Below are positions 2,560 to 48,924 of a DNA stretch of 64,000 nt, piece after piece. A model generated the notes under the pieces. That model ran no database searches. It was not told the origin of the DNA and saw only the letters and a list, made by a program, of their open reading frames with translations. The stretch's first letter is position 1, and the number at the start of each line of letters is the position of its first letter. The position numbers and the translations under genes are program-made. Source of the DNA: Thermomicrobiales bacterium (lineage in GTDB: Bacteria > Chloroflexota > Chloroflexia > Thermomicrobiales > UBA6265); contig JBDHWC010000004.1 of NCBI GenBank assembly GCA_039809985.1, forward strand, positions 1,405 to 65,404. The letters run 5' to 3'.

Positions 2560-3636
2560 ATGGCGAACAGGGTCGACCCCGACCACCTCGCGTGGCTCGA
2601 CCTGCGGCGGGTCGGCCACCTCGCGACCGCGGACGCCGACGGGACACCGAGCGTGGTCCCGGTCTGCTTCGCGCTGGCCGACATCGGCGGCGAACGAACG
2701 GCGGCCGTCGCGATCGACGAGAAACCGAAGGGCGGCGACCCGCGGGCCCTGCGGCGATTGCGGAACATCGCGGCGCGGCCAGAGGTCGCGCTCGTCGCCG
2801 ACGACTACCGGGAAGCGTGGTCCGAACTGGGGTGGACGCTGCTGCGCGGCACCGCGACCGTCGTCGAGCCGGGTGGGGCCGGGCACGCGGAGGCCGTGTC
2901 CGCGCTGCGGGCGAAGTACCCCCAGTACCATGGCATGGCGCTGGAGTCGCTGCCGGTGATCGCGATCGCGCCGACCGCGACATCGACGTGGCGCGGAGGA
3001 TCGGGCGACGGCCCGCCGTCGCGGCTCGGGGAGTCGGAACTGGCGGCGGCGGTGCGCGGTCGCCGCTCGGTGCGGGCGTTCCGACCCGACCCGGTGCCGC
3101 GCGGGATCGTCGAACGGGCGATCGAGGCGGCGAGCTGGGCCCCGTCGCCGCACGGGCGGCAGCCGTGGCGCTTCGCCGTGGTCGAGGCACAGGCGCGGCG
3201 GGCCGCGCTGGCCGAGGCGATGGCCGCGACGTGGCAGGCGCAACTGGAACTGGACGGTCAGGACGCCGCGACGGTGCAGGCCCGTCTCCGCAAGAGCAAG
3301 GAGCGGTTGCGACAGGCCCCGGTGCTGGTGGTCGCCTGCCTCTACCTCGCCGACCTCGACGTCTACCCGGACGCGCAGCGGCAGGCGGACGAGGCGACGA
3401 TGGCCGTCCAGAGTCTCGGGGCCGCCGTCCAGAACCTGCTGCTCAGCCTCTACGCGGCCGGCGTCGACGGCGGCTGGATGTGCGCGCCGCTCTTCTGCCC
3501 GGAGATCGTGCGGCGGCATCTCGGCTTGGCCGAGGGACTGGTGCCGCACGCGCTGGTCGCCGTCGGCTACGCGGCGCGGGATCCGGTCAGGCGGCCGAGG
3601 CTGCCCCTCGACCGCCTGATCGTGTCGTGGGAGTGA
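2560..3636 (+). CDS. Fusion protein: PPOX-class (Rv0121-like) F420-dependent domain plus nitroreductase-like (FbiB C-terminal-like) domain
   Basis: The N-terminal ~145 aa carry 'VGHLATADADGTPSVVPVCF...IDEKPK...LRRLRNI...PEVALVADDY.E.WS.LGW'. The C-terminal ~200 aa carry 'RGRRSVRAFRPDPVP...IEAASWAPSPHGRQPWRF'. Confidence 0.7.
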   Translation: MANRVDPDHLAWLDLRRVGHLATADADGTPSVVPVCFALADIGGERTAAVAIDEKPKGGDPRALRRLRNIAARPEVALVADDYREAWSELGWTLLRGTATVVEPGGAGHAEAVSALRAKYPQYHGMALESLPVIAIAPTATSTWRGGSGDGPPSRLGESELAAAVRGRRSVRAFRPDPVPRGIVERAIEAASWAPSPHGRQPWRFAVVEAQARRAALAEAMAATWQAQLELDGQDAATVQARLRKSKERLRQAPVLVVACLYLADLDVYPDAQRQADEATMAVQSLGAAVQNLLLSLYAAGVDGGWMCAPLFCPEIVRRHLGLAEGLVPHALVAVGYAARDPVRRPRLPLDRLIVSWE

Positions 3637-5922: not shown

Positions 5923-6453
5923 ATGACCACGATGCATCCCCACCCACTAGGTCGACGACCGGGCGCACGGCGCGCCGTCGGTCGCCGGACGCTGCTGCAA
6001 GTCGCGCTCGGCGGGGCCGGGCTGGCGCTGGTCGGCTGCACCGCGCCCGTCATCGGCAACTCGGGCGGCTCCGGCAGTCTGGACCTCTTGGCGAAACCGG
6101 CCGAGGATGTCTGGCCGGAGATGTTCCACCAAGCGCCCGTCTCGGTGCAGGAGGTCTACCGCTACGCGGTCGCCCACCACGACGAGTTGCAGTGGATGCC
6201 GTGCTTCTGCGGCTGCGTCGACCAAGGCCACAAGAACAACTTCGACTGCTACGTCAGCGAGGTTCGCGACGACGGGTCGGTGGTGATCGACCCGATGGGC
6301 TTCGGCTGAGGGGTCTGCCAAGACGTCGCGCGTAGCGTGATGAAGCAGCGACCCGAAGGCAAGAGCCTCCTCGAGATCCGGCAGTACGTCGACAAGACGT
6401 TCGGCTCGGTCGGTCCCTCGACCAAGACGCCGATGCCGCCGGAGGGGATTTGA
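5923..6453 (+). CDS. PCYCGC-motif lipoprotein with an in-frame UGA (candidate selenocysteine) at 6307-6309
   Basis: The signal 'RRTLLQVALGGAGLALVGC' looks like a Tat/lipobox. The core is 'PCFCGCVDQGHKNNFDCYV'. The track ORF stops at TGA 6307. The same frame continues with high GC3 ('GVCQDVARSVMKQ...IRQYVDKTFG') to TGA 6451-6453, exactly where the next gene starts. Confidence 0.6.
6307..6352 (+). promoter_or_regulatory. In-frame UGA plus a downstream hairpin (candidate bacterial SECIS)
   Basis: The UGA at 6307-6309 is followed by a stem at 6325-6331 / 6345-6352 (GUCGCGC with GCAGCGAC, one bulge). The loop is ~13 nt and contains GU. I folded it by eye only. Confidence 0.35.
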
Positions 6454-7151
6454 CCGGCGGCCCCGGAGCGCTGACGGCGCAGGTCGGACCAACCGTGGTC
6501 GACGCGGTGCCGTTGCCGGGGACTGACGTCGTCTTCTCGATCGTGCGGCCGGACGACATGGACCGGTTGCTCGATCGGGCCGCGGACGACCCGGAGCAGA
6601 ATCTTCCCTACTGGGCCGAACTCTGGCCGAGCGGCATCGCGCTTGCCGCCGCCATCTCGACCGGCGGGATCGCGGTCGCGGGCGTGCCGTGCCTGGAACT
6701 GGGCTGCGGGCTGGGCGTCACCGCGGCGGCGGTGCTGCGCGCGGGCGCGAACCTGCTCGCGACCGACTACGCGGCGGAGTCGCTGGCGCTCTGCCGCACG
6801 AACTGCCTCGCCAACGCCGGGCGCGAGCCGGCGACCCTGCGCTGCAACTGGCGCGAGCCGGACGCGGTGCCGCTCGCCCCGGGCGGGGCCAGCTGGCCGC
6901 TGGTCCTCGCCGCCGACGTGCTGTACGAGCGGCGGGACGTCGAGCCGTTGCTCGGGCTGGTCGAGCGGCTGGTCGCTCCCGGCGGCGCGCTCTGGCTGGC
7001 GGAGCCGGGCCGACCGCCGGCGACGGCGTTCCTCGACGCGCTGCGGCTCGGCGGCTGGGCCGACCGGGTCACCGAATGCTCCGGGCCGTGGCCAGACCCG
7101 AAGGACGACGGCGTCGTGGTGCGGCTCCACCGGCTGGCCCGCGCCATGTAG
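6450..7151 (+). CDS. Class I SAM-dependent methyltransferase (Methyltransf_16 / lysine-MTase-like)
   Basis: It contains 'LELGCGLGVTAAAVLRAGANLLATDY' (motif I plus an acidic post-I) and 'LVLAADVLYE'. Its TTG start overlaps the upstream stop as TTGA. Confidence 0.75.
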   Translation: MTGGPGALTAQVGPTVVDAVPLPGTDVVFSIVRPDDMDRLLDRAADDPEQNLPYWAELWPSGIALAAAISTGGIAVAGVPCLELGCGLGVTAAAVLRAGANLLATDYAAESLALCRTNCLANAGREPATLRCNWREPDAVPLAPGGASWPLVLAADVLYERRDVEPLLGLVERLVAPGGALWLAEPGRPPATAFLDALRLGGWADRVTECSGPWPDPKDDGVVVRLHRLARAM

Positions 7152-16887: not shown

Positions 16888-17859
16888 GTGACGGAGTGGC
16901 GGACCCGCACCGGGCGGACGCGGCGGGCGGTGCTCGGCGCGTCGCTGGCGCTGCCCGCGGTCGCGTCGGCCCGCCTCGCCGCGGCCCAGACGGCCGCGCC
17001 GAAGCGCGTCACCGGTCAGGTGGTGGGCGCGCCGGGGGTCAACATCCGGTCGTGCGCGCGGACCACCTGCCCGGTCCGCACCGTGGTCAAGCTCGGCGAG
17101 GAGCTGACCGTGACCGGGGAGCGGGTCGACAACTACTTCCCGGTCGAGAAGGGGAACGTCGTCGGCTTCGCCTTCGACCTCTACGTGATGACCCCCGACC
17201 ACGTGCCGGAGCTGGTCCAGGGTCAGCAGGGGTGCAAGCGGGTCGGACTGATCTTCAACCTCGGCGTCGGCTACCCAATGCAGCTCGGGCCGCTGAAGGC
17301 GCTGAAGGCGAAGGGGGTCGCGGCCAGCGTCTTCCCGATGGGCTGGTGGGCGAAAGTGCCGGAGAACGCGGCGGCACTGCGGCAGATCGACCAGATGGGG
17401 TTCCTGATCGGCAGCCACGGCAACGACCGGAAGGAGCTGACCGGTCTCTCCGACGACGCGGTGCGGGCCGACATCGCGACCGCGGCCGAGATCATCACCT
17501 CGGTGATCGGCAAGCCGCCGCAGCCGTTCATGACCCCCTACGCGGCGGCGAGCGACGATCGGGTGCTCGGCCTGATCGGCAAGGCCGGCTTCCTGCCGGT
17601 CGGGTTCCGGGTGCCGGCGGCGGACTGGGACTTCGACGCCGACCCGAACGAGATCTTCATGAAGGTGGTGCCGAACGTGACCGACGGCGACCTGATCGAG
17701 TTCCACCTCGACGCGCCGGCGACGCCGCAGGCGACCGCCGTCGCGCTGCCGTGGGTCGTTGACCGGCTGCTCGAGAAGGGGTACACCTTCGTCACCGTGG
17801 CGGAGATGGCGCAGCCGTGTTCGCCCGCCGGCACCCCGCCGGCCACCCCCGCTGCCTGA
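16888..17859 (+). CDS. Secreted SH3b-like domain plus polysaccharide deacetylase (NodB-like) protein
   Basis: It has the Tat signal 'RTRRAVLGASLALPAVASARLAAA'. An SH3-like segment 'GVNIRSCARTTCPVRTVVKLGEELTV' follows. The C-terminal half resembles a deacetylase ('FPMGWW', 'IGSHGNDR'). Confidence 0.7.
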   Translation: MTEWRTRTGRTRRAVLGASLALPAVASARLAAAQTAAPKRVTGQVVGAPGVNIRSCARTTCPVRTVVKLGEELTVTGERVDNYFPVEKGNVVGFAFDLYVMTPDHVPELVQGQQGCKRVGLIFNLGVGYPMQLGPLKALKAKGVAASVFPMGWWAKVPENAAALRQIDQMGFLIGSHGNDRKELTGLSDDAVRADIATAAEIITSVIGKPPQPFMTPYAAASDDRVLGLIGKAGFLPVGFRVPAADWDFDADPNEIFMKVVPNVTDGDLIEFHLDAPATPQATAVALPWVVDRLLEKGYTFVTVAEMAQPCSPAGTPPATPAA

Positions 17860-21214: not shown

Positions 21215-22395
21215 GCGAGTCGATCCGTCTTGCCCATCTGGCAGACACCCACCTCGGGTACCGCGGTCCCGGGGGGGTCGACGCCTTCGGTCGCAACCAG
21301 CGGCTCGTCGACGTCGAGCGGGCGTTCGAGGCCGCGCTGGCCGCGATCATCGACGAGCGACCCGACCTCGTGCTCCACGCCGGCGACCTGTTCCACCACA
21401 CCCGGCCGACGTGGGACACGGTCGGGCACGTGGTCCGCCAACTGCGCCGGCTCGAGGCCGCGGGCATTGCCTGCTTGGTGATCGCCGGCAACCACGACAC
21501 GCCCCGCCTGCGGACCAGCAGCTCCGTCTTTTCCCTGCTGCGGGAGATCGTGCCGGGGGTTCGCTTCGTCACCGGCTACGAGAAGGAGGAGGTCCGGTAC
21601 GACGACCTCGGCCTCGTCGTCCACGCCATTCCCCACGGCGCGCTGACCGACCACGACGAGCCGACCCCGGCCTACCGGCGCGAGCAGCGCAACGTGATCG
21701 TCACCCACGGCCTCGCGCCGCGGGTCCAGTTGCGCGGTCCGCACGAGCCGGGCGAGGAACGGTTGCCGGAGAACCTGCTCGACCCCGACTTCGACTACAT
21801 CGCCCTCGGCCACTTCCACGAGTGGGGCGACCAAGGGCGCAACGCGTGGTACAGCGGCAGCACCGAACGGTTCGGCTGGGGCGACCTGCCGGCCGAGCCG
21901 GGGTGGAACCTCGTCACCCTCGGGCCGCCGGGGGCCGCGTCGGTGGTCGAGCACCGGCCGGTGCCGGCGCGGCCGATGGCGCGCATCCGCGACCTCGCGG
22001 TCGGCGAACGGACGGCGCAGGAGATCGTCGACGAGGTGCTGGCGCAGCTCGAGGCGCTGGGCGACCCGGCGGCGATGGTCAGGGTCGAGGTGGTCGGGGC
22101 GGCGCGCCCGGTTCGCCGCGAGGCGGCGGCCCTGCTCGCCCAGCAGGTCGGCGGGCGGGTCTGGCACGTCGACCTCGTGGCCCCGGGCGACCCGGTGATC
22201 GGCCGCTACGACGGCGACCACGAGGCGGTGACCGACGTTCGGGTGATGTTCGGCCAGTTCGTCGATGACCGGGTGCGGGAGCGCGTCTACGGCGACGACT
22301 TCGCCGCGCGCTTCCGCGAGCGCGGGATGCGGGCGCTCGACGAGGCGATGGAGGCGGCGCGAGAGGCGACCGTCGATGAGGAAGGCGCAGCGTGA
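21211..22395 (+). CDS. mre11: Mre11/SbcD-family metallophosphoesterase nuclease
   Basis: Motifs seen are 'LAHLADTHLG', 'VLHAGDLFH', 'LVIAGNHD', 'VTHG' and 'ALGHFH'. The start overlaps the herA stop as GTGA. Confidence 0.85.
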   Translation: MSESIRLAHLADTHLGYRGPGGVDAFGRNQRLVDVERAFEAALAAIIDERPDLVLHAGDLFHHTRPTWDTVGHVVRQLRRLEAAGIACLVIAGNHDTPRLRTSSSVFSLLREIVPGVRFVTGYEKEEVRYDDLGLVVHAIPHGALTDHDEPTPAYRREQRNVIVTHGLAPRVQLRGPHEPGEERLPENLLDPDFDYIALGHFHEWGDQGRNAWYSGSTERFGWGDLPAEPGWNLVTLGPPGAASVVEHRPVPARPMARIRDLAVGERTAQEIVDEVLAQLEALGDPAAMVRVEVVGAARPVRREAAALLAQQVGGRVWHVDLVAPGDPVIGRYDGDHEAVTDVRVMFGQFVDDRVRERVYGDDFAARFRERGMRALDEAMEAAREATVDEEGAA

Positions 22396-25229
22396 TCCTC
22401 CTCTCGCTCGAACTGGAGAACTACCGGCAGTACCGAGCCGAGCGGATCGAGTTCCCGGAGCGGGGGATCGTCGGCGTCGTCGGCGCGAACGGGGTCGGCA
22501 AGACGACGCTGTTCGAGGCGATCGAGTGGGCGCTCTACGCGCCGCGGGAGATTCCCAGTCCCGAGGTGTCCCCGCGCGGCGTCCCCGGCAAGACGAAGGT
22601 GACGCTCCGGCTCTTCGACCCGCGGGACGGGGCGACGTGGGTGGTCGAGCGCGGGCTGAGCCGGTCCGGCATCAAGCAGGGCGAGGTCTATCGGGAGGAC
22701 AACCCGAGTCTGCCGGTCGTGCAGGGCACGTCGGCGGTCACCGCGTTCGTCTCCGGGAGACTGATCGGCCTGTCGCGGGCCGCGTTCATTTCGACCTTCT
22801 TCACCCGGCAGAAGGAACTCGGCTTCTTCGGCGCGATAGGCGCGACCGACCGGCGGCGCGAGGTGTCGCGTCTGCTCGGTCTGGAGGTGATCCGGTCAGC
22901 CCAGTCGCGCGTCGGCGAGGAGCGGAACGCGAAGGACCAGGACGCGCGCGGCCTCGGCGCGCAGGTGGACCGGATGGCCGCCGAGCGCGACTTCGCGGCC
23001 GAGAGCGAAGCCGCGGAGCGGCGCGTCGCCGCGGCCTCTGCCGAGCGCGATGCCGCGTTGGTCGCCCAGCAGGCGGCGGTCGCGCAGCTCGACGCCGTGC
23101 GCGAGCAGTTGTCGGTGTTGCGGCAGCGCGAGAAGGTCGACCACCAGTTCCGCCTCGCCCTCTCCGTGGTCGACGGCAAGATCGCCAAGTCTCAGGCGCA
23201 ACACGACGCCGCGATGGGGCAGATCACCGAGATCGACCGACGAGCCGAGGAACTGCGGCGGCTCGAGCCGGTCGCGGCGGGCGAAGCCGCCCTTGCCACG
23301 GAGTTGCGTGGGCATGAGCGCGAGAGTGAACGCCACCGCCAAGCCGAACGGCTGAGACGGGAAGGGGACGCCGCGCGAGATCGGGTGGCTTCCGGCACCG
23401 CCGCGGTGCGGAAGATTGTCGGTGGCTTGCCGGCGGCAGCGTTGGTCGCGGGTTGGCAATGGCAGGCCGTGGACGAGACGGATCCGATGGCCGCGGTCGA
23501 ACGACTGGCCCGGGTCAGTGAGCGGGTCAGCCCCGGGCCGGCGGTTCGCCTAGCGCAGGCTGCGACGGAGAGCGTGGCACTCGCGTCGCGCCGCGACGCG
23601 GCCAAGACGCGTCGCGACCGGTGCGAGGAACTGTACGCACAGCTCGAAGAGGAGCGGCTGAACCTGCTGGCCGGAGACGACTTGGCTGGGTTGACGGCGC
23701 AGCACCGCGAAGCACTCGAGCGAGCTCAGGGCATCGTCACCGCGGCGAGAGCCAATCTGAGCCGGACGACTGCCGATCTCGACAAGATCGAACGGCTGCG
23801 GGACCGCCTGCGGGCGCAGCGGCTCGACGAGCCGTGTCCGACCTGCGGTCGCCCGTTCGACGCGTCGGACCTGGCCCTCACGGTCGATGCCCTCGCAGCA
23901 CAGGCGGATGCCATCAGCGCGGAAATCGCCAAGTTCCGCGCCGAGGCAGAGAAAGGCCATGCCGAGGTCGTTCGCCGGCAGGAGCGGATCCGGGAACTTG
24001 AGGCGCGCGCCGTTCGCGTCCGCGTGCTCGATGAGCGACTGGCGGCCGGGCGCGTGGAGGTCGCCAAAGCGGTCGAGGCGCTTCACGACAGCGAGGCGGC
24101 TCTGGCGGCATGTCTCGAAGGAGCCGGGTTCGAGAGCCTTCCGGACGCCGCCGAGCAGGCTCGGCTCGCCGACGAGGCCGCGCTGCTAGAGCAGGTGCGG
24201 GCGGCACACGACGTGCTTGCGGCCCGGGGCGAGGAGGTCGGGCGCGCGGTCCGGGACCGAGTCGAGGCCGCCGCCGCGATCGAGGCGCTCGGGCCCGTTT
24301 CGTACGACGCGGCGGCGCACCACGCGACGGTGCGGGCGCACGATGCCGCTCGTGATGCGGTCACCAAGATGTCCCTCATCGCGCAGGAGGTCGCCAAGCG
24401 GCCCGTCTGGGAGAGGCAGGCGACCGAGGCGAGCGCGAACTTGACCGACCTCGCGGCGGAGCGTGGCCGGGTCGCCGTGGCGCGTGCTGCCAACGGGCAC
24501 GATCCGGCGAAGCTTGCCGAGGCTGACGTCGAGGAGGCCCGACTCCATCGCGAGGCACAGGAGCGCAGCCGCCACCGCCACGTCGCCGAAAGCATGCTGG
24601 CCGAGGCGGTCAGCGCGGTGCAGCGGCTGCGCGAGGAGCACGACCGGTTCGCCCGCGACCGCGAGCAGGCGGTGGTCCTCCGGCGCGAGGCGGACGAACT
24701 CAGTCGGATGTACAGCGAGTTCGACGCGTTCGAGCGCTACGTCGCCGGCCAGCTCGGACCGCGGATCGCCGACACCGCCGGGGAGCTGATCGAGCGGATC
24801 ACCAGCGGCAAGTACGCGAAGGTCGACCTCGACGAGAATTACGGGGTGCGCGTCTTCGACGGCGAGGAGGCGTTCCCGATCGAGCAGTTCTCCGGCGGCG
24901 AAAAGGACGTCTTCGCGCTCGCGGCCCGACTGGCGCTCTCGCGGGTGGTCGGGGGGCAGGCGCTGAACCGGCCCCGCTTCCTCGTGCTCGACGAGGTGTT
25001 CGGCGCGCTTGACCAAGAGCGACGGCGACAGGTGCTCGACGTTCTCTGCCGCCTGACGCAGGAGAGCGAGGACTTTCGCCAGTTGTTCATCGTCAGCCAC
25101 GTCGAGGATGTCGTGGAGTCGGAGATGATGGACCAGATCTGGCGCGTCACCGAGCAGGACGGCGCGAGCCGGGTCGAGGTCTCGGTGCGCAACGAACTGG
25201 CGGAGCGGGCGGCACTGGTCGGTGCCTGA
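22392..25229 (+). CDS. rad50: Rad50/SbcC-family SMC-like ATPase with a zinc hook
   Basis: Walker A is 'GANGVGKTT'. A long coiled coil follows, with the CPTC hook at 23835-23846. The signature is 'FSGGEKDVFALAARLAL', Walker B is 'FLVLDEVFGALD' and the H-loop is 'IVSHV'. The start overlaps the mre11 stop as GTGA. Confidence 0.9.
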   Translation: MILLSLELENYRQYRAERIEFPERGIVGVVGANGVGKTTLFEAIEWALYAPREIPSPEVSPRGVPGKTKVTLRLFDPRDGATWVVERGLSRSGIKQGEVYREDNPSLPVVQGTSAVTAFVSGRLIGLSRAAFISTFFTRQKELGFFGAIGATDRRREVSRLLGLEVIRSAQSRVGEERNAKDQDARGLGAQVDRMAAERDFAAESEAAERRVAAASAERDAALVAQQAAVAQLDAVREQLSVLRQREKVDHQFRLALSVVDGKIAKSQAQHDAAMGQITEIDRRAEELRRLEPVAAGEAALATELRGHERESERHRQAERLRREGDAARDRVASGTAAVRKIVGGLPAAALVAGWQWQAVDETDPMAAVERLARVSERVSPGPAVRLAQAATESVALASRRDAAKTRRDRCEELYAQLEEERLNLLAGDDLAGLTAQHREALERAQGIVTAARANLSRTTADLDKIERLRDRLRAQRLDEPCPTCGRPFDASDLALTVDALAAQADAISAEIAKFRAEAEKGHAEVVRRQERIRELEARAVRVRVLDERLAAGRVEVAKAVEALHDSEAALAACLEGAGFESLPDAAEQARLADEAALLEQVRAAHDVLAARGEEVGRAVRDRVEAAAAIEALGPVSYDAAAHHATVRAHDAARDAVTKMSLIAQEVAKRPVWERQATEASANLTDLAAERGRVAVARAANGHDPAKLAEADVEEARLHREAQERSRHRHVAESMLAEAVSAVQRLREEHDRFARDREQAVVLRREADELSRMYSEFDAFERYVAGQLGPRIADTAGELIERITSGKYAKVDLDENYGVRVFDGEEAFPIEQFSGGEKDVFALAARLALSRVVGGQALNRPRFLVLDEVFGALDQERRRQVLDVLCRLTQESEDFRQLFIVSHVEDVVESEMMDQIWRVTEQDGASRVEVSVRNELAERAALVGA

Positions 25230-29900: not shown

Positions 29901-30134
29901 GTGGGCGATCTCTCGACGCTGGCCCGGTTTCTCGTCGCGGCGGGCCTTTGCCTTGCCGCGGTCGGCGGCCTGATCCTGCTGGCCGGGCGGGTTCCGGGGC
30001 TGGACTGGCTCGGTCGGCTGCCCGGCGACTTCACGGTGCGCAAGGGCCCGGTCACGATCTTCGCCCCGATTGCCACCTCGATTCTCCTCAGCCTGCTCCT
30101 CACCCTGATCCTCAACGTCATCGCGCGTCGCTGA
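29901..30134 (+). CDS. DUF2905-like small membrane protein
   Basis: The 77 aa ORF has two TM segments and the motif 'LPGDFTVRKGPVTIFAPIATSILLS'. Confidence 0.7.
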   Translation: MGDLSTLARFLVAAGLCLAAVGGLILLAGRVPGLDWLGRLPGDFTVRKGPVTIFAPIATSILLSLLLTLILNVIARR

Positions 30135-30420
30135 CCGCCGCACCGGAATCGCAGTGCGACCCGCGTCGTCCTGGACGGCGAGCGGCTGCCTGCGCCGGTT
30201 GCGCGGTCGACATCTCCTGTTGCCCCTTGTGCCCGGAGGCCCGTTCGACGCCGGTCGGCGTGCGGCCACCGTCGACCCCGGCGGGCGGCCGTCCCGCGTC
30301 GGGCAGGGTGCGGAAGGGCGCGTGGTACAGTCTCGGGACCGCCGTTCGCGGCGACCGATCCAGACCGCCGGACGTACCGGCCACGCAGTGAACGACGGCG
30401 ACGGCTGCCGTCCGGGGGTG

Positions 30421-32397
30421 ATGGCGATGCAGGCATTCTCGCTGCCCGCGAAGCGCAGCCTTGGCACCTCGCCCCGGCGCGGGGCGATGCCCGCAATCCT
30501 CAGGTTCGGCCTCGTGCTGATGCTGCTGCCGACGACGCTGCTCGCGCCGCGGGCGGATGCCCAAGGCACGAGGACGGCCACCACCGCCGCGGCCGCGCCG
30601 GTCGACAGCCTGGCCTACATCGAGATCCCGCTGGACGAGCGGTCGGAGCAGTGGCAACTCGGCCGCGCCCTGATCGACCGGGCCGGATTCGGCCCGCTGC
30701 TGGACCAGGCGCTGGCGGAGGGCCTGACCGACGAGCACGGGAACCGACTCCCGCTCGACGCCGTCCTCGGCGGCGAGGCCGGGGTGGTCCTCAGCACGTC
30801 GCTCCTCTCGCAGGCGGCGGCCGAGACCGGCCTGAGCACCGACCTGAGCGATCTCTCCAGCCTGCTCGGCACGCCGGAGGCCGCCTCGGGCCGAGCGTCG
30901 GGCGCCCAGGGCTTCGCAGTCGTTCTCGACGCCCGCGCCCCGGACACCGCGTTCGCCGCGGTCACGGCGGTCGTCGGCGACCGGGCTGCCGAGAACGGCA
31001 CGACGGTGCAGACGACCGACCACGCCGGGGTGACCATCACCTCTGCCGCCGGCGGCAGCGGCGACGGGATGGCCGTCGCCCGCGTCGGCGACCACGTGCT
31101 GCTCGCTTCCGACCCGGCCGACCTCGCGGGGCCGATCGAGGCCGCGACGGGCACCACGCCGTCCTTGGCCGACGCCGCGCCGTTCCAGAAGGCGCGGCAG
31201 GTGCTGGGCGGCGACGACCTGCTCTTCGCCTTCGTCAACGGGCCGGCGGCGGCTCGGGCGGAAGGCGCGCTGGGCGCGCTTGGGCCGGCGGGCGGCACCT
31301 TGCTGCACACGGAGCGGTACTCCGCGCTGCAAGTCAAGGCCGACCAGCCAGGGCTCCGCATCGAAACGGTCGCGATGTCGGCCGACGGCACCCCGATCGC
31401 CGACGCGGCCGCGCCCTACGTTTCGGCGTTGGCCAGCAAGGCCCCCGGCGACGCGGCGCTCTTCCTGAGCGGCATGGACCTCGGCAAGACCGGTTTCCTC
31501 GACGCGCTCGGCGCGGTCGGGCTGCAGGTGATGCTCGGCACGAGCGGGCTCGGGCCGACCCCGGACGCGACCGCCGACCCGGCGGCCCAGATCGCCGCCC
31601 AGTATGCCGCGCTGGCCGGCCTGATCGGCTTCAACCCGCAGACCGACCTGATTCACCAGCTGAGCGGCGAGTACGGGCTCTGGCTGAGCGGGATGAGCGA
31701 CCCGTCCCAGCTCGGCATCCTCTTCGCGTCGGGCGTCAGCGACCCGGCGACCGTCGGCAACGTCCTCTCGCAGATCACGATTCTGGCCCAAGGGGGGGCC
31801 AGTTCGGAGGGCGGGGTGTCCACCCGACAAGTCGGCGACTCCAGCGTCACCACCGTGCCGACCGGCCCGGGCGGCCCGCCGCTGGAGTTCGGCCTAGTCG
31901 ACGGCCAGTTGGTCGTCGCCGCGGGGAGCGGCATCGACCAGTTCGTCGGCGGATCCAATCGGGCCAGCCTCGCCGACAACGCGCAGTACCAGGCCGTGAT
32001 GTCGGCGCTGCCGAGCGAGTCGAACGGTTCGCTCTACGCCGACCTGACCCAGCTCCTGCCGCTGGTCACACAGGCGGGGCAGTCGACGGCCAGCGACATC
32101 AGCGAATCGACGATCAAGGACGACAGCCCGGACTGCGCCAAGTTCTCCAGCCAGGAAGAGGCGCAGAAGGCGTACGACTCGCTGGCGGAAGGCACCTTCG
32201 ACCTCGACCGCAACTTCAACGGCATCGCCTGCGAGGACTTCTTCGCCGCTCCGGCGAGCGGTGGCAACGAGCCTGCGATGGCTGGCATCGAGGGGCTCGA
32301 CCTTTCGGCCTTGAAGGCGTTCGGCCTGGTGGCGTTCGACCAGGACGGTATGCGACGAACCTCGTCGATTCTCTACGTCGGAGAGCCCGGCTCCTGA
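30421..32397 (+). CDS. Secreted large protein (DUF3352-like) with a C-terminal Excalibur Ca-binding motif
   Basis: The signal peptide is 'MPAILRFGLVLMLLPTTLLAPRADAQG'. The C-terminus 'DCAKFSSQEEAQKAYD...DLDRNFNGIACEDFF' matches the Excalibur pattern. The start is uncertain between 30421 and the ATG of MPAILRF, about 66 nt downstream. Confidence 0.7.
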   Translation: MAMQAFSLPAKRSLGTSPRRGAMPAILRFGLVLMLLPTTLLAPRADAQGTRTATTAAAAPVDSLAYIEIPLDERSEQWQLGRALIDRAGFGPLLDQALAEGLTDEHGNRLPLDAVLGGEAGVVLSTSLLSQAAAETGLSTDLSDLSSLLGTPEAASGRASGAQGFAVVLDARAPDTAFAAVTAVVGDRAAENGTTVQTTDHAGVTITSAAGGSGDGMAVARVGDHVLLASDPADLAGPIEAATGTTPSLADAAPFQKARQVLGGDDLLFAFVNGPAAARAEGALGALGPAGGTLLHTERYSALQVKADQPGLRIETVAMSADGTPIADAAAPYVSALASKAPGDAALFLSGMDLGKTGFLDALGAVGLQVMLGTSGLGPTPDATADPAAQIAAQYAALAGLIGFNPQTDLIHQLSGEYGLWLSGMSDPSQLGILFASGVSDPATVGNVLSQITILAQGGASSEGGVSTRQVGDSSVTTVPTGPGGPPLEFGLVDGQLVVAAGSGIDQFVGGSNRASLADNAQYQAVMSALPSESNGSLYADLTQLLPLVTQAGQSTASDISESTIKDDSPDCAKFSSQEEAQKAYDSLAEGTFDLDRNFNGIACEDFFAAPASGGNEPAMAGIEGLDLSALKAFGLVAFDQDGMRRTSSILYVGEPGS

Positions 32398-32434
32398 ACG
32401 AGGCCGCGGCAACGAGAGCAAGAGGGGAGAACCC

Positions 32435-34504
32435 ATGTCGTTGACGATCCCGACCCGACACCGCCCGTTCGCCCGACTGGCGGGCCGGGCGGCGCAGGGC
32501 TTGGTGGCCGCGAGCCTCGCGTTGTCGCTCGCGGTGCCGCTGCTGCCGGCGCAGGCCCAGGCCGCCGCCGCGCCGGTGACCGCCAAGGCGGCCCCGGCCG
32601 GGACCGCGATCTTCGCCGAGCTCAACACTGACCTTGACTCGCCACAGTGGCAGCAGGCGGGCGAGCTGATGGCGCGACTCGGGGTGCCCGACGCGCTCGA
32701 CCAGGTGCGCGCCGCGGCGGTCGACACCCACGGCGAGCAGGGGATGGGCCAGCCGCCGACCCCCGCCCAGCTCGAGGCACTGCTCGGCGGCGAGATGGCG
32801 ATCGCCGTCGAGCCGGAGACGATCTCGTCGTTCGTGGAGAAGGCGCTCGACGCCCCGCTCGACGAGGACGGCGAGCCGATGCTCGAGCACCACGACCGCC
32901 CGTACGACATGCCGGGCGTGGCGGTGATCATCGCCCCGAGCAACATGGACGTTGCCTGGGGCTACGTCCAGCAGCAACTCGCGGCCTTGGCGACGCGGAA
33001 CGGCACGCAGGTCGCGTCCGTCGAGCATGACGGGGTCGTGCTCCTCTCCGTGGCCGCGCCGGAGGAGTCCGCGGCGACGCCGGTCGCCGACACGGGCGAC
33101 ATGGACCACGACGACATGATGCCGGGCGGCAGCGCGGCGGCGAAGGTGGGCGACCTGATCGTCGCCGCGACCTCGGCCGACAGCCTGCAGCCGTTCCTCG
33201 ACACGGCGACCGGGGCCGCCCCGTCGCTCGCCGATTCCGCCGAGATGCAGGACGTGCTGGCGAACCTGCCGACCTTTGAAGGGCTCGGGTTCGCGTACGC
33301 CGATTCCGCCAAGGTGTGGGACGGCTTCAGCGCCGAAACCAAGGCCGACATGAACCAGATTCTGCCGATGTACGCCAACATGGGCGACAAGGCGTGGCAG
33401 GTGCACGGTGGTGGCATCGTCTGGACCGACCAGAACGGCTTCCGGATGGACAGCATCGCGATCGGCGCGAACGGAGCCAGCCTCGCCGACTTGGTGCCGG
33501 CCAACGGCCCGATCGCGGGCGAGCAGAAGGTCGCCGACGACACCGCGGTCTTCATCGCCGGCGACGCGCCGAAGGGTTCGTGGGACAGCGCCGCGAACAG
33601 CGTCGCGGAACTGGTCAACACCGGCATGGCCGACGCCGACAGCATGATGGGCACGCCGGCCGCGGTGCCGCAACCGCCGGCGACGCTGCGCGACGTGCTG
33701 CGCCAACAGACGTCGGGCGACGCGGCGGCTCAGGCGGCCGGCGTGCTGGGCTTCAACCTGAAGGACGACTTCTTCGGCCAGTTCAGCGGGCCGTACACGA
33801 TCGCCCTCGGCCTGCCGGCCTTCGGGTCGACCGGCCTCGACTTCAACGCGGTCTTCGCCAGCAACGTCGACGACGCGGCAACGGTCGCGACCTCGGCCGA
33901 GAAGATCGCCCGCCTGATCGGCAAGCTGGGCAGCGAGGAGGGCGGCGCGGCCACGGTGAGCTCGCGTGCGGTCGGCAGTGACAAGGTCTACTCGGTGGCG
34001 GACACGTCGGGGGCGGGGATGCCGCCGATCGAGTTCGGCGTGGTCGGCCAGAGCTTCGCGATCGGCGCGGGCAAGGGGATCGACAACTTCGCCAACGGCC
34101 CGGCGACGGCGCTGGCGAGCAACCCGCGGTACCAGCAGACGATGGCGCTGCTGCCCGCCGACAAGTCGCAGGTCGTCTACGTCGACCTGAAGTCGATCGT
34201 GACGCTGGTCAACGCCTTCACCGGCGCGGGGATGGCGGCGATGCCGGACGCCGACGCGTCGTGCGCGGCGTTCTCCGACCAGGCGGCGGCGCAGGCGGCG
34301 TTCGACGCCGACCCGATGACCAACACCGCGCTCGACCAGAACTTCAACGGGGTGGTCTGCGAGGACTTCTTCGCCGCCGCCACGCCGGAGGCGAGCCCGG
34401 TCCCGAGCGGCAGTCTCGAGAACCTCGAGGCCTTCGGCTCGGTGACGTACGAGAAGGACGGCAAGATCGGATCCAGCGCGATCCTGGTCGTCGCCGGTTC
34501 GTAG
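32435..34504 (+). CDS. Paralogous secreted DUF3352-like protein with an Excalibur motif
   Basis: It has a signal peptide, shares N-terminal logic with the upstream gene ('LD..S.QWQ..G.L..R.G') and ends in 'CAAFSDQAAAQAAFD...LDQNFNGVVCEDFF'. Confidence 0.7.
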   Translation: MSLTIPTRHRPFARLAGRAAQGLVAASLALSLAVPLLPAQAQAAAAPVTAKAAPAGTAIFAELNTDLDSPQWQQAGELMARLGVPDALDQVRAAAVDTHGEQGMGQPPTPAQLEALLGGEMAIAVEPETISSFVEKALDAPLDEDGEPMLEHHDRPYDMPGVAVIIAPSNMDVAWGYVQQQLAALATRNGTQVASVEHDGVVLLSVAAPEESAATPVADTGDMDHDDMMPGGSAAAKVGDLIVAATSADSLQPFLDTATGAAPSLADSAEMQDVLANLPTFEGLGFAYADSAKVWDGFSAETKADMNQILPMYANMGDKAWQVHGGGIVWTDQNGFRMDSIAIGANGASLADLVPANGPIAGEQKVADDTAVFIAGDAPKGSWDSAANSVAELVNTGMADADSMMGTPAAVPQPPATLRDVLRQQTSGDAAAQAAGVLGFNLKDDFFGQFSGPYTIALGLPAFGSTGLDFNAVFASNVDDAATVATSAEKIARLIGKLGSEEGGAATVSSRAVGSDKVYSVADTSGAGMPPIEFGVVGQSFAIGAGKGIDNFANGPATALASNPRYQQTMALLPADKSQVVYVDLKSIVTLVNAFTGAGMAAMPDADASCAAFSDQAAAQAAFDADPMTNTALDQNFNGVVCEDFFAAATPEASPVPSGSLENLEAFGSVTYEKDGKIGSSAILVVAGS

Positions 34505-38057: not shown

Positions 38058-40205
38058 CTACTTCGCCGACTCGGCGGTTGGCGCGGGGGCCGCGCTCTTG
38101 TCGCGGAGGACGGCCCAGCCGCCGGTCATGCCGGCGTCGCTGACCCCGTAGAAGGTGCGGACGCCGTCGCCGCGGTAGACGAGGTTGAACCGCCGGTCGC
38201 CGCCGCGCAGCCTGTAGCCGCGGGCGAGCCCGTGGTCGCCGCGCCACTTGACCGACGCCGGGTCGATCTCGCCCTCCTCGTACTGGGTGATGGCGGACCG
38301 GAGCAGGCGGCGCTCCGTGTCTCGGGTGACGTTCGAGATCAGCTTGTGGTACCGGAGGTCGCGGATCGTGTAGTAGGTCGTCCCGTCCTGCTCGAACGAG
38401 TCGATCACCTCGATCCCGGTGGTCGGCGCGATCGGGTCGGGCTCGACCGGCTCCTCCGTCACCTCGAGGCCGACCGGCGCGCTGGCGGGCACCGGGGTCG
38501 ACGACTCGGGGCTCGGGCTCGCCTTGGCGGCGGGCTGGTGCCGGTGCTTGTTCCCGCCGGAGCGGGCCGGGGCCGGCTCCGCTGCCGGAACGGTGGGCAC
38601 CGCTGGGGTGGTCACCTCGACCGGGGTCGAGATCAGCACTTCGACGGGGGCGGCCCTTGGCACCGCGAGGTCGCCGCGCACCATCGCCACGATCTCGTCC
38701 CGAGAGGCCGGCTCGGATTCGGCGCCGCGGCGGACGAAGATCGAACCGGCGAGGGTGTATGGGCGCTCGCTGCCGCGCGGGACGTCGACCCGCAGCACGG
38801 TCTTGTCGCCCGAGACGAGCGGGGTGATCTCGACCGGCAGCGCCGGGGAGAGGCCTTCGGCGAGTCCCTGCCGGATGTCCTGCTCGGCGGCGGCGGCGTC
38901 GGGCACCCCGGCGATCGCCCGCTTCTCGGAGGCGTTCGCTCCGACGTAGACCGTGCCGCCCGATGAGTTGGCCATCGCGGCGATGTCGCGCAGGGCGAGC
39001 GCGAGGCCCGTCCCGGCCCGGCGGGAGGCGATGCTCTCGTGGAACGCGAGAACGTCGCCGGGGCCGTCGAGCCGCGCGGCCTTGACCGGGTCGTCCGGCA
39101 CCGGGGAGAACGGTCGCGTCCGCTCGAAGTCGTCGCCGCGGAAGAGGTCGCGGATCGCCGCGAACGACACCTCCGGCAGAAGCATCTCGGTCGGCCGGTC
39201 GCCGATCCCGAGGTTCGACTCGCGGTCCGGGTCGCGCTCGAGCCGGTGGGCGTCCGAGCCTTGGATGCAGTGCATCCGGCGCGGGTACTCCGGCTTCGTG
39301 CCGTTGAAGAAGCGAGCGGTCGAGCGCCGGTGCGGGCCGAGCGCGAGATCGGTCACCTCCAGCGCGGCCAGCCGCGGATCCTGCGTGTAGGCGATCTTCG
39401 TCTGGCCGCCGAAGCGCAACCCCTGCATGGCGACGCCGTGCGTGGAGTTGACGTGCGCGCCGATGACGATCGCGCCGTGGTCCGCGAGCAGTTCGTAGGC
39501 GCGGAGGACGTCAGAGGTCGCGCCCACCTCGCCGCTGCCGAACCGCTCCTCCGGCACGCCGAGGGTGAGCAGCAGGTGCTCCATCTTCCGGACCGAGGTG
39601 CCGGCGGGGAAGATCGCCAGAACGTGGAACCCGAACTGCGCCGTGAACTCGAAGCCGGGCAGCAAGAGCACCGTGGCGAGCAGCCGACGGTACTCCTGCA
39701 GGCGTTCGGCCTCGGCCGGCTCGATCCGCTTCAGGTCCTCGAGCAGTTCCAGGTCCTCGATCTCGCGCCAGAGGTCGGCATAGCCGCGGACCGAGTTGTG
39801 GTCGGTGAAGGCGATGACGTCGAGGCCGCGCTCCTCGGCCCGGCGCAGGATGTCGAGGTAGGAGACACCCGGTTGCTGGTAGTCGACGGAGCCGGGCGTG
39901 TGGATGTGGAGATCGGCCCTGCGCCAAGCGAGGCCGGTCGCCGGATTGTCGGGCTCGGAGGCGACTGGGAGGTCGCTCCGGCCGTTGGTGGGCGTCGTCA
40001 CGGACGAGCGCGTCGCCGTTGGGGCCGTGGCGTCGGTCGCCGGCGGCACCCGCGTCGCAGCGCTCCCGCGACGAGGGCGTGTGGATGGGATTGGGGACTC
40101 CTTTCGCGATCGGGGCCGCAAGCGGCACTCCGCCGAACGGAACGCAAGTCGTTCCGTCGCTAGGAAAGTATATGCTGCGGTGGCAAGCCCTTGTCCCTGC
40201 GGCAC
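38058..40205 (-). CDS. Multidomain protein: PHP phosphoesterase domain, AlbA_2 (Schlafen-type) nucleic-acid-binding domain and an unassigned C-terminal domain
   Basis: The PHP domain shows 'ADLHIHTPGS...VIAFTDHNS...GFEF...IGAHVNS...IQGSDAH'. The AlbA_2-like part shows 'LAFHESIASR...IAAMANSSGGTVYVG...LRVDVPRGSERPY'. A Pro/Ala linker follows, then ~115 aa with 'YYTIRDLRYHK...WRGDHGLARGYRL'. The start is uncertain: GTG 40205 or GTG 40001. Confidence 0.6.
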   Translation of the reverse strand: MPQGQGLATAAYTFLATERLAFRSAECRLRPRSRKESPIPSTRPRRGSAATRVPPATDATAPTATRSSVTTPTNGRSDLPVASEPDNPATGLAWRRADLHIHTPGSVDYQQPGVSYLDILRRAEERGLDVIAFTDHNSVRGYADLWREIEDLELLEDLKRIEPAEAERLQEYRRLLATVLLLPGFEFTAQFGFHVLAIFPAGTSVRKMEHLLLTLGVPEERFGSGEVGATSDVLRAYELLADHGAIVIGAHVNSTHGVAMQGLRFGGQTKIAYTQDPRLAALEVTDLALGPHRRSTARFFNGTKPEYPRRMHCIQGSDAHRLERDPDRESNLGIGDRPTEMLLPEVSFAAIRDLFRGDDFERTRPFSPVPDDPVKAARLDGPGDVLAFHESIASRRAGTGLALALRDIAAMANSSGGTVYVGANASEKRAIAGVPDAAAAEQDIRQGLAEGLSPALPVEITPLVSGDKTVLRVDVPRGSERPYTLAGSIFVRRGAESEPASRDEIVAMVRGDLAVPRAAPVEVLISTPVEVTTPAVPTVPAAEPAPARSGGNKHRHQPAAKASPSPESSTPVPASAPVGLEVTEEPVEPDPIAPTTGIEVIDSFEQDGTTYYTIRDLRYHKLISNVTRDTERRLLRSAITQYEEGEIDPASVKWRGDHGLARGYRLRGGDRRFNLVYRGDGVRTFYGVSDAGMTGGWAVLRDKSAAPAPTAESAK

Positions 40206-40377
40206 ATTCGGATCGGGACGATCGGGAAACCGACAGGACGGGGGTTGGCGTACACTCGGGCGAGGGGTTCGGGACCGCCGTGCCTAGGGTTGGGGTGCGT
40301 GCTGCGCGTCCTGGCCTGACCCGGGGACGCTGCGGGAACGTCGGGAGCCACAGCTCGTGCAGATTCCGCAGTTCGAG

Positions 40378-46985: not shown

Positions 46986-47863
46986 AGGGCGACGGAGGCC
47001 GGGGCGGTCTCGGTCAGCCGCACCCACTCGTCGATGTCGAGCGTCTGCGCGCGGCGAGCCGGGTCGATGCCCGCGCCGGCGAGCCACGCGACCACCTCGT
47101 CCTTGGGCAGGCCGAGTTCGGCGGCGAGCGAGTTGGCGACCTGCTTCCGCTTCTGGCGGAACCCGGCGTTGACGACGCGGAAGAAGCGTTGCCGTTCCGC
47201 AGGCGGCAGCGGCGGCTCGGGCCGGACGTCGAGGATCGCGACCGCGGACTCGACCGTCGGCGGCGGGATGAAGACCGACGGGGCGACCCGGAACGCGATC
47301 CGCGGCACGGCGAAGAACTGGGTCGCGACCGACAGGACGCTCATCTGCGGCGGCCGGGCGCAGAGTCGCTCGGCCACCTCGAGTTGCAGCATGACCGTGA
47401 GCCGGCGCGGCGGTCGCGGCGACTCGAGCAGGTGGCGCAGCACGGCGGAGCCGACCGAGTAGGGGAGGTTCGCGGCGACGACATACGGTTCGTCCGGCGC
47501 GAGAAGGCTGGCGATGTCGATGTTGAGCGCGTCCCCCTCGACCACGGTCAGGCGCGGGTCGTCGCCGAACGTCCGGCGCAGGTGGGCGGCGAGCGTCGGG
47601 TCGAGTTCGATGGCGATCACCCGACCGGCCCGCGCCAGCAGTTCCGAGGTGAGGATGCCGAGGCCCGGGCCGACTTCCAGCACCGTGTCGACCGGACCGA
47701 TGCCGGCCTGCTTGACGAGCCTCTGGACGATGCCGCGCTCGTAGAGAAAATGCTGGCCGAGTCCCTTCGAGGGCCGAATGCCCAGTTCCTGCATCAGCGA
47801 CTGCCAGTCGCGGCGCGAGGCGGGGAGAAGCAGGGTCGGGTCGGCCGCCCGGGACTCGGTCAT
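46982..47863 (-). CDS. rsmA: 16S rRNA (adenine1518/1519-N6)-dimethyltransferase
   Basis: It carries 'LGQHFL', 'VLEVGPGLGILT', 'IELD' and 'VAANLPY'. The ATG at 47863 overlaps the selD stop as ATGA. The rest of the 656-aa track ORF is out of frame over selD. Confidence 0.92.
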   Translation of the reverse strand: MTESRAADPTLLLPASRRDWQSLMQELGIRPSKGLGQHFLYERGIVQRLVKQAGIGPVDTVLEVGPGLGILTSELLARAGRVIAIELDPTLAAHLRRTFGDDPRLTVVEGDALNIDIASLLAPDEPYVVAANLPYSVGSAVLRHLLESPRPPRRLTVMLQLEVAERLCARPPQMSVLSVATQFFAVPRIAFRVAPSVFIPPPTVESAVAILDVRPEPPLPPAERQRFFRVVNAGFRQKRKQVANSLAAELGLPKDEVVAWLAGAGIDPARRAQTLDIDEWVRLTETAPASVAL

Positions 47864-48924
47864 CGGGCCGCCGACTCGACCACCTCGACGCCGCGTCCGG
47901 GAACGGCCGACCCGATCTCCCAGACGGTGACGCTCCGTTCGGCGCAGGCGGCGAGGAAGGCGTCGGCGCGGTCCGGGTCGACGGCGAGCAGCAGCCCGCC
48001 CGACGTCTGGGGGTCGAAGAGCAGCGTCGCGACGACCGGGTCGACCCCGTCGGCCACGCGGACGCCGGGATCGCCGCCGACGAAGTGGACGCGGTTGCGG
48101 CCGAGGCCGCCGGCGACGTTCCCCTGCTCGGCGTAGGCGCGCGCTCCCGGCAGCAGCGGCACTCGCGAGGCCTCGATGCGAAGGGCAGCGTCGCCGCGTG
48201 CCGCCATCTCGGAAGCGTGCCCGAGCAGGCCGAAGCCGGTGATGTCGGTGCAGGCGTGGACGCCGTCCGTCGCCAAGGCGGCGCGCGAGGCGTCGCGGTT
48301 CAGCGTGAGCATCGCGTCGACGGCGGCTCGGACGTCGGCCGGGTCGGCATTGCCTCGCTTGAGGGCGGTGGCGACGACGCCCGTGCCAATCGGCTTGGTC
48401 AGGAACAGCCGGTCGCCGGCGCGCGCGCCGCCCTTGGTCAGGATCCGCTCGGGGTCGATGGTGCCGGTGACGGCGAGGCCGAACTTCGGCTCGGCGTCGG
48501 TCACGGTGTGGCCGCCGCCGACCACCGCGCCCGCCTCCGCCACCTTGTCGGCCGCGCCCTGGAAAATGGCGGTGACCATGGCGGGCGGCAGCGAGTCGGG
48601 AAAGCCGGCGACGTTGAGGGCGAGCAGCACCTCGCCGCCCATCGCGTAGACGTCGCTCATGCTGTTGGCGGCGGCGATCGCGCCGTAGGTCCACGGGTCG
48701 TCGACGATCGGCGTGAAGAAGTCGACCGTCTGCACGATCGCGAGGTCGTCGCGCAGGCGATAGACCGCCGCGTCGTCGGACGTTTGCAGGCCGACGACGA
48801 GGTTGGCGTTGGTCGGGAGCGTCAGCGGGCGCAGCACCTGCGCCAAGGCCGCCGGGCCGAGCTTGGCCGCTCAGCCGGCGCAGCTGGCGAGGGTGGTGAG
48901 CCGAATCTCGTCTCGGGTCTGCAT
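47860..48924 (-). CDS. selD: Selenide, water dikinase (selenophosphate synthetase) with an in-frame UGA (Sec) at codon 18
   Basis: The track ORF (47860-48846) lacks the catalytic N-terminus. Extending in frame gives 'MQTRDEIRLTTLASCAG-U-AAKLGPAAL' from ATG 48924. The TGA (48871-48873) aligns with Cys17 of E. coli SelD ('IRLTQYSHGAGCGCKISP'), and the Lys is conserved. The body carries 'DDAAVY', 'VDFFTP' and 'AANSMSDVYAMGG'. Confidence 0.85.
48842..48873 (-). promoter_or_regulatory. UGA plus a downstream hairpin (candidate SECIS) in selD
   Basis: The mRNA reads UGA-GCG-GCCAAG-CUCGGCCCGGCGGC-CUUGGC. A 6-bp stem GCCAAG/CUUGGC starts 3 nt after the UGA, and a G-rich apical region could pair further. 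I folded it by eye. Confidence 0.4.

Follow-up and report, generated by a model that had tools for sequence, protein, structure and literature searches.

The window analysed here is a stretch of 64,000 nt of Thermomicrobiales DNA (contig JBDHWC010000004.1). On its forward strand, an open reading frame (ORF) starting at ATG 5923 reaches an in-frame TGA at 6307–6309, after the residues ...VVIDPMGFG. The ORF encodes part of a cysteine-rich protein of the PF13798 family, and the TGA is most probably a selenocysteine (Sec) codon rather than a stop. Past the TGA the same frame continues for 47 sense codons (GVCQDVARSVMKQRPEGKSLLEIRQYVDKTFGSVGPSTKTPMPPEGI) and then closes at a second TGA, 6451–6453, which is overlapped by the TTG start of the next gene at 6450 (TTGA); without read-through, positions 6310–6449 would be a 140-nt gap lacking any assignment. 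Codon 129 would then be the first residue of a U-x-x-C pair (U129-G-V-C132), and PCFCGCVDQGHKNNFDCYV is found upstream of it, at residues 93–111. All of these features had been described in a first-pass annotation of the DNA, and all were found again, including the high G+C content at third codon positions (GC3) of the continuation, which is 0.87 in frame (0.61 and 0.46 in the two alternative frames) and compares with 0.88 upstream of the UGA. Because the G+C content of the window is 71.8%, an open frame of 47 codons is in itself unremarkable and not significant, and the case rests on comparative evidence.

The additional residues are recognized by the family profile. The truncated product matched PF13798 with 58.7 bits over profile positions 39–104 of 153, while the read-through product, with U written as C, matched with 104.3 bits (cut-off 25) over positions 39–153 of 153. 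The match thus extends to the end of the profile on read-through, so that the 47 extra residues correspond to the missing C-terminal third of the domain.

In a first homology search, all 37 of the closest proteins stopped at the same site, after ...D-x-M-S/G-F/Y-G. The truncated protein (P0001) was also used as the query against 1.84 billion cluster representatives (50% identity), and the best 150 were aligned. Within these 150, 98 representatives end directly before the UGA column and 52 continue past it. Cysteine occupies the column, as part of a C-x-x-C motif, in 43 of the 52, and 40 of these 43 run on for roughly 40–50 residues; G, E, A or W is seen in a handful of the continuing representatives. 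The UGA therefore stands where PF13798 homologues have a conserved cysteine, as the first-pass annotation had anticipated. Sec forms exceed Cys forms in number among the nearest relatives.

One scan of GTDB species genomes gave DNA for 18 loci, and a scan of JGI metagenomes did so for 54; with the gene of the window included, the codon at the Sec column was readable in 69 loci. It was TGA in 66 of these, TGC in two and CGA in one, and neither TAA nor TAG was seen. The true terminal stops of the same genes were TGA in 39 cases, TAG in 21 and TAA in 3. One more locus, L073, has Cys at the Sec column by eye, beyond the 69 counted, and the Cys forms in L072–L074 and L079–L081 use TGC. The TGA loci come from metagenome-assembled genomes (MAGs) of Thermomicrobiales and other Chloroflexota, from Ca. 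Limnocylindria, from one Thermaerobacter MAG and from one actinomycete MAG.

The residues that follow the UGA are conserved in every locus that reaches that far, numbering 45–48 and ending in TP.PP (69 residues in L021). In the nine loci printed, the extension differs from that of the window by 9–13 synonymous changes per 47 codons. A conserved extension with so many synonymous changes indicates purifying selection at the protein level. The first-pass annotation had suggested comparing orthologues for TGA as opposed to TGC or TGT at this position; the counts are overwhelmingly of TGA, and the downstream protein is kept.

Three variants among the relatives deserve separate mention. The Sec column is CGA (Arg) in L018 (positions 3355–3357) and GGA (Gly) in L082 (P0061), both codons being one base away from TGA. 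Both loci retain the full 7-bp hairpin described below, and the family signature is degraded in L082 (PCFRVCG); these two cases reflect either recent loss of Sec or assembly errors. The third, P0279 (ENA, 186 aa), is a variant of the window protein that is frameshifted after ...DGSVVI and continues in another frame, probably owing to an assembly error in one metagenome.

A candidate Sec insertion sequence (SECIS) lies within the coding sequence 3′ of the UGA (Table 1). The first-pass annotation had drawn a hairpin 15 nt downstream of the UGA; the hairpin stands, while the distance needs correction, the stem of the conserved core beginning 14 nt after the UGA. The pentaloop is CGUAG in the window and CGUGN in the family, with an invariant G at loop position 2. 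The minimum free energy of positions 6307–6370 is −26.7 kcal/mol (z = −3.0 relative to shuffled sequences). The lower stem in this minimum free energy fold (6311–6315/6350–6354) is paired in only 68% of cases across the family and was rejected as a conserved feature.

Covariation was assessed in an alignment of 47 distinct Sec-form sequences (A2), with the U of the UGA as column 1 and the stem in columns 18–24/30–36. Standard pairs occupy 99.1% of the stem cells, and three of the seven pairs change on both sides (C-G/G-C in six cases, A-U/G-C in four and G-C/C-G in four), so that the covariance analysis envisaged in the first-pass annotation yielded true compensatory changes. In 500 column shuffles, neither the pairing nor the covariation score of the real alignment was reached. 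A shift of the register by one column reduced pairing to ≤25%, and any shift of one to three columns gave ≤69%. RNAalifold recovered the same helix without prior input. The swap from G-C to C-G arises from synonymous changes at two third codon positions (ACG/GCG to ACC/GCC, and GCC to GCG) and therefore cannot be accounted for by protein constraint. Four distant Cys forms have only 3–4 of the seven pairs in the hairpin register.

The window also carries selD, encoding selenophosphate synthetase, and its own in-frame Sec codon, reported in the first-pass annotation, was found at the position given in Table 1. With U written as C, the SelD product scores 369 bits against TIGR00476 (cut-off 125) and 332 bits against NF002098 (cut-off 299). 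Since a SelD that itself depends on Sec would be pointless without decoding of UGA as Sec, this organism should be capable of such decoding. The 60 nt from the selD UGA fold to −28.9 kcal/mol, including complementarity of the GGCCAAG...CUUGGC type, and the gene is liable to truncation or to a wrong start in the hands of gene callers.

Taking together the Cys/Sec column, the restriction of the internal stop to TGA, the conservation of the extension, the covariation of the hairpin and the Sec-containing selD in the window, we consider TGA 6307–6309 to be the Sec codon of an exported Cys-rich lipoprotein, with a probability of roughly 0.92 on this comparative sequence evidence. The first-pass description of the gene, an uncharacterised PF13798 lipoprotein with Sec in place of a conserved Cys, is borne out by the same lines of evidence. 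During translation, the hairpin at 6324–6342, 14 nt 3′ of the UGA, would act as a bacterial SECIS and recruit SelB carrying Sec-tRNA(Sec), leading to insertion of U129. Translation would then proceed for 47 further codons to the true stop at 6451–6453. The predicted product is an exported lipoprotein of 176 residues in which Sec stands for the first Cys of the conserved CxxC.

Table 1. Coordinates of the predicted selenoprotein gene, its parts and associated genes in the window
Feature	Position	Strand	Details
Predicted complete selenoprotein gene, PF13798 (PCYCGC / CYCXC family)	5923..6453	+	176 codons + final stop; Sec at codon 129
Putative N-terminal export signal	5923..6039	+	RRTLLQ twin-arginine-like motif, hydrophobic stretch, lipobox L-V-G-C39 (TGC 6037-6039)
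P-C-F-C-G-C family signature, residues 93-98	6199..6216	+	Further ligand-type residues H103, C109
In-frame UGA, probably read as Sec (U129), first residue of U-G-V-C132	6307..6309	+	Cys codon 6316-6318
C-terminal 47 residues, translated only with UGA recoding	6310..6450	+	Protein-level conservation, synonymous changes
Putative SECIS core hairpin, 7-bp stem + 5-nt loop	6324..6342	+	Stem 6324-6330/6336-6342, loop 6331-6335
Methyltransferase, PF10294 Methyltransf_16-like	6450..7151	+	TTG start overlaps final TGA of selenoprotein gene (TTGA)
selD (selenophosphate synthetase)	47860..48924	-	In-frame Sec TGA 48871-48873, motif SCAG-U-AAKL

Several observations weigh against a Sec codon. ARAGORN found no tRNA, and hence no tRNA-Sec, in the 64-kb window or in 31 related loci, and in the window neither selA nor selB came to light when GTPase motifs were searched for and ten large ORFs were scanned with Pfam. 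The hairpin has no match in Rfam at gathering thresholds. Part of the hairpin palindrome is forced by the peptide that it encodes, [VI]-[TA]-R-[DA]-V-M, and two close Cys forms keep its pairs (7/7 in L079 and 6/7 in L081). For these last two reasons, the compensatory changes carry more weight than conservation of the hairpin by itself. Finally, a 2026 review places OS_HP4, the PF13798 selenoprotein discussed below, among the computationally predicted selenoprotein families (PMC13188914).

The simplest alternative is that the TGA is a genuine stop, giving a protein of 128 residues followed by a spacer or a separate small ORF at 6310–6449. The gene callers behind the public databases all truncate the protein here, NCBI names truncated relatives from neighbouring clades as if they were complete, and long open frames are common at 72% G+C. 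However, both the last third of PF13798 and full-length Cys homologues align with the 47 downstream residues as a single domain, and in the model of the Cys homologue P0044 the C-terminal helices belong to one confidently predicted fold (pLDDT about 97). The internal stop is TGA in all 66 loci that have one, whereas the real stops are mixed, and the UGA is followed by a covarying hairpin at SECIS distance. A genuine stop is therefore very unlikely. A pseudogene or a sequencing error, with a Cys codon mutated or misread, would draw on the single-base difference between TGA and TGC or TGT and on the rare relatives with other one-base neighbours (CGA in L018 and GGA in L082). It would, however, have to produce the same TGA in 66 independently assembled loci of several lineages, with the frame intact and purifying selection downstream, which we regard as extremely improbable.

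A further alternative is recoding of the UGA with a residue other than Sec, through read-through with Trp, Cys or Arg or through a variant code. Neither selA, selB nor tRNA-Sec is seen in the window, and a few database proteins have W or G at the Sec column; in the sole G case checked, however, the codon is truly GGA and not a recoded TGA, and the gene is degraded. A reassigned code is excluded because TGA is the commonest ordinary terminator in these genes, at 39 of 63 terminal stops, and it also ends most of the large ORFs of the window. Moreover, the Sec-dependent selD of the window requires Sec machinery, the site is the Cys of a CxxC motif, a classic position of Cys/Sec exchange, and the hairpin lies at the distance of a bacterial SECIS. 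Recoding with another amino acid is thus very unlikely, and Sec remains the preferred identity of residue 129.

The N-terminus of the protein appears, from its motifs, to be a lipoprotein signal of the twin-arginine translocation (Tat) type. Across the 37 sequences of alignment A1, conservation is complete at G38 and reaches at least 90% at R21, R22, L36 and C39, with a lipobox of the form L-[AV]-G-C; the TAT_signal model gave no match at E ≤0.01 in Pfam and NCBIfam scans. P93, C94, C96, G97, C98, H103 and C109 are invariant in the same 37 sequences, and the equivalent residues are also invariant in a second alignment, of 53 sequences (A3). U129 and C132 are the remaining two Cys positions of the PF13798 set.

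AlphaFold2 was run on P0044, the closest Cys homologue, with alignment A3. The domain was predicted with a pLDDT (predicted local distance difference test) of about 94–98, including the part equivalent to the 47-residue extension, which forms the last helices of the domain. The CxxC adjoins the start of a long helix in this model. A sequence search of the PDB returned only a spurious signal-peptide match, and a fold search of the PDB with Foldseek gave a best E of 1.8, to the N-terminal domain of CcmH, which is not significant. No functional transfer is possible, since neither search gives a solved relative. One metagenomic protein, P0172 (395 aa), has a UshA/SoxB-like metallophosphoesterase fused to a C-terminal Cys-form PCYCGC domain; its best NCBIfam match, at a score below the model cut-off, is to a different known selenoprotein family, 'UshA-like (seleno)protein'.

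The gene directly downstream encodes the methyltransferase listed in Table 1 and is probably co-transcribed with the selenoprotein gene. In 27 loci of the closest clade a homologue of this gene occupies the same place, directly after the selenoprotein gene; the distant loci lack it. An aldehyde dehydrogenase is likewise syntenic in the closest clade. The methyltransferase matches no NCBIfam model, and neither it nor the aldehyde dehydrogenase points to the function of the selenoprotein.

A possible link with metals comes from the gene neighbourhoods of distant members. Two multicopper oxidase genes lie directly upstream in L016. The neighbours in L084 encode an ArsR-type regulator, an HMA P-type ATPase, an HMA protein, a YHS-containing ABC protein and DUF305, and those in L085 encode CopC/CopD, cytochrome c, YHS, multicopper oxidase and cupredoxin. 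L017 has a DtxR-like regulator upstream and DUF305 downstream, and a cupredoxin gene lies upstream of the Cys form in L080. The Cys form of Parageobacillus adjoins an Fe3+ binding protein (PMC13068155). On the other side, the neighbours in the window itself are SDR, methyltransferase and aldehyde dehydrogenase genes, with no metal genes among them, and no copper or soft-metal genes were found in the neighbourhoods of L083, L086 and L020–L024. We therefore suggest only tentatively, from these distant neighbourhoods, that the protein may bind a soft metal outside the cytoplasm, with copper the likeliest candidate, or may be a thiol/selenol redox protein linked to metals. U129 and C132 could then work jointly with the CxCxC-H-C residues in a metal or redox role.

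A more specific picture is speculative and rather doubtful. Here the Sec form, rather than the Cys form, would predominate in soil Chloroflexota, Ca. Limnocylindria and actinomycetes; among the nearest cluster representatives, some two thirds end at the UGA. The protein would be an exported, membrane-anchored copper metallochaperone or redox partner in which the U129 selenolate ligates Cu(I) or another soft metal beside the CxCxC-H-C residues. The neighbours that recur beside family members are genes for multicopper oxidase, CopCD, CopA/CopZ-type proteins, YHS, cupredoxin and DUF305. If so, it would provide an extracytoplasmic Sec-metal site in a fold without a solved relative.

Elsewhere in the window, and unconnected with the selenoprotein gene, there are two tandem DUF3352 genes (30109–34504, forward strand), a gene for a 741-residue Schlafen/AlbA_2 domain protein (38061–40283, reverse strand) and a gene for a coiled-coil ATPase of roughly 950 residues that looks SbcC/Rad50-like by eye (22380–25229, forward strand). 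In-frame TGA junctions at 17857, 25227 and 49442 were considered as further Sec codons and rejected, as they resemble ordinary adjacent genes.

The first-pass annotation had presented the gene as a candidate new selenoprotein from a family absent from published lists. This is contradicted by two reviews and by the name of an NCBIfam model. The 2026 review lists a "CYCXC family protein (OS_HP4), PF13798, UxxC" and credits a 2007 study of Olavius symbionts (PMC13188914), and a 2022 review also gives OS_HP4 with a UxxC motif (PMC9312934). Both attribute it to the metagenome study of Olavius algarvensis symbionts (Zhang & Gladyshev 2007), whose main text names only OS_HP1–3 and not OS_HP4; the two reviews and the model name are thus the basis of the attribution. 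The sole NCBIfam match of the window protein is NF041379, "OS_HP4_CYCXC, CYCXC family (seleno)protein" (48.2 bits, E = 8.7e-13, model positions 9–89 of 90). As the cut-off of 90 bits is not reached, the window protein is homologous to this equivalog and lies outside it. Ten Cys-form relatives also fall under the cut-off, the scores ranging from 46 to 81 bits across the eleven full-length sequences scanned.

With PF13798 and the UxxC Sec motif already catalogued, the window gene represents no new selenoprotein family and opens no new class of system. What is new is a divergent soil Chloroflexota-like clade that lies under the NF041379 cut-off and whose records end at the UGA, the majority of Sec over Cys forms among the nearest relatives, and the definition of a covarying SECIS hairpin. 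Nearly all public protein records of the window clade (P0001–P0037 and P0189–P0270) stop at the Sec codon, and truncated relatives from neighbouring clades (Ca. Limnocylindria and Solirubrobacteraceae MAGs) carry the NCBI name 'PCYCGC motif-containing (lipo)protein'.

For annotation, the locus would become one selenoprotein gene of 176 codons rather than a 128-codon ORF and a 140-nt gap. The same correction would be due for many database entries, including all 37 of the closest proteins and about 98 of the best 150 cluster representatives, and NF041379 is too narrow to rescue the truncated records of the window clade. The PF13798 family also gains a well-defined SECIS hairpin with real covariation, and mostly aerobic, soil-type Chloroflexota-like lineages would be using Sec in an exported lipoprotein. 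The neighbourhoods with copper genes offer a testable lead for a family without a solved structure.

Compared with OS_HP4 as represented by NF041379, the window protein has in common the PF13798 domain, the C-x-C-x-C signature and a single Sec in a UxxC motif. The Sec of OS_HP4 should be in the same column as U129, because U129–C132 is the only C/U-x-x-C in the domain. The differences are that the relatives of the window protein come from MAGs of the soil Chloroflexota/Thermomicrobiales type and from actinomycete MAGs, and that the window protein carries an RR-type lipoprotein signal. Cys-form PCYCGC lipoproteins are exemplified by AOT13_14730 of Parageobacillus thermoglucosidasius, a protein of unknown function (PMC13068155). 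These proteins resemble the window protein in domain, lipobox Cys and remaining conserved Cys residues, whereas they have Cys in place of Sec and no in-frame UGA, and need no SECIS.

A precedent for a Tat-exported selenoprotein folded in the cytoplasm exists in FdnG/FdoG, the catalytic subunits of formate dehydrogenases, which are unrelated to the window protein in fold, size, cofactor and function. The bacterial SECIS, for which E. coli fdhF is the paradigm and bSECISearch provides a consensus, is a stem-loop within the coding sequence that follows the UGA at a short and constant distance, with an apical loop containing G and U. The window hairpin resembles it in lying within the coding sequence close 3′ of the UGA and in having G and U in its apical loop. 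In contrast to the bacterial SECIS, neither a lower stem nor a bulged U was found to be conserved, and the CGUGN pentaloop on a 7-bp stem is particular to the PF13798 hairpin.

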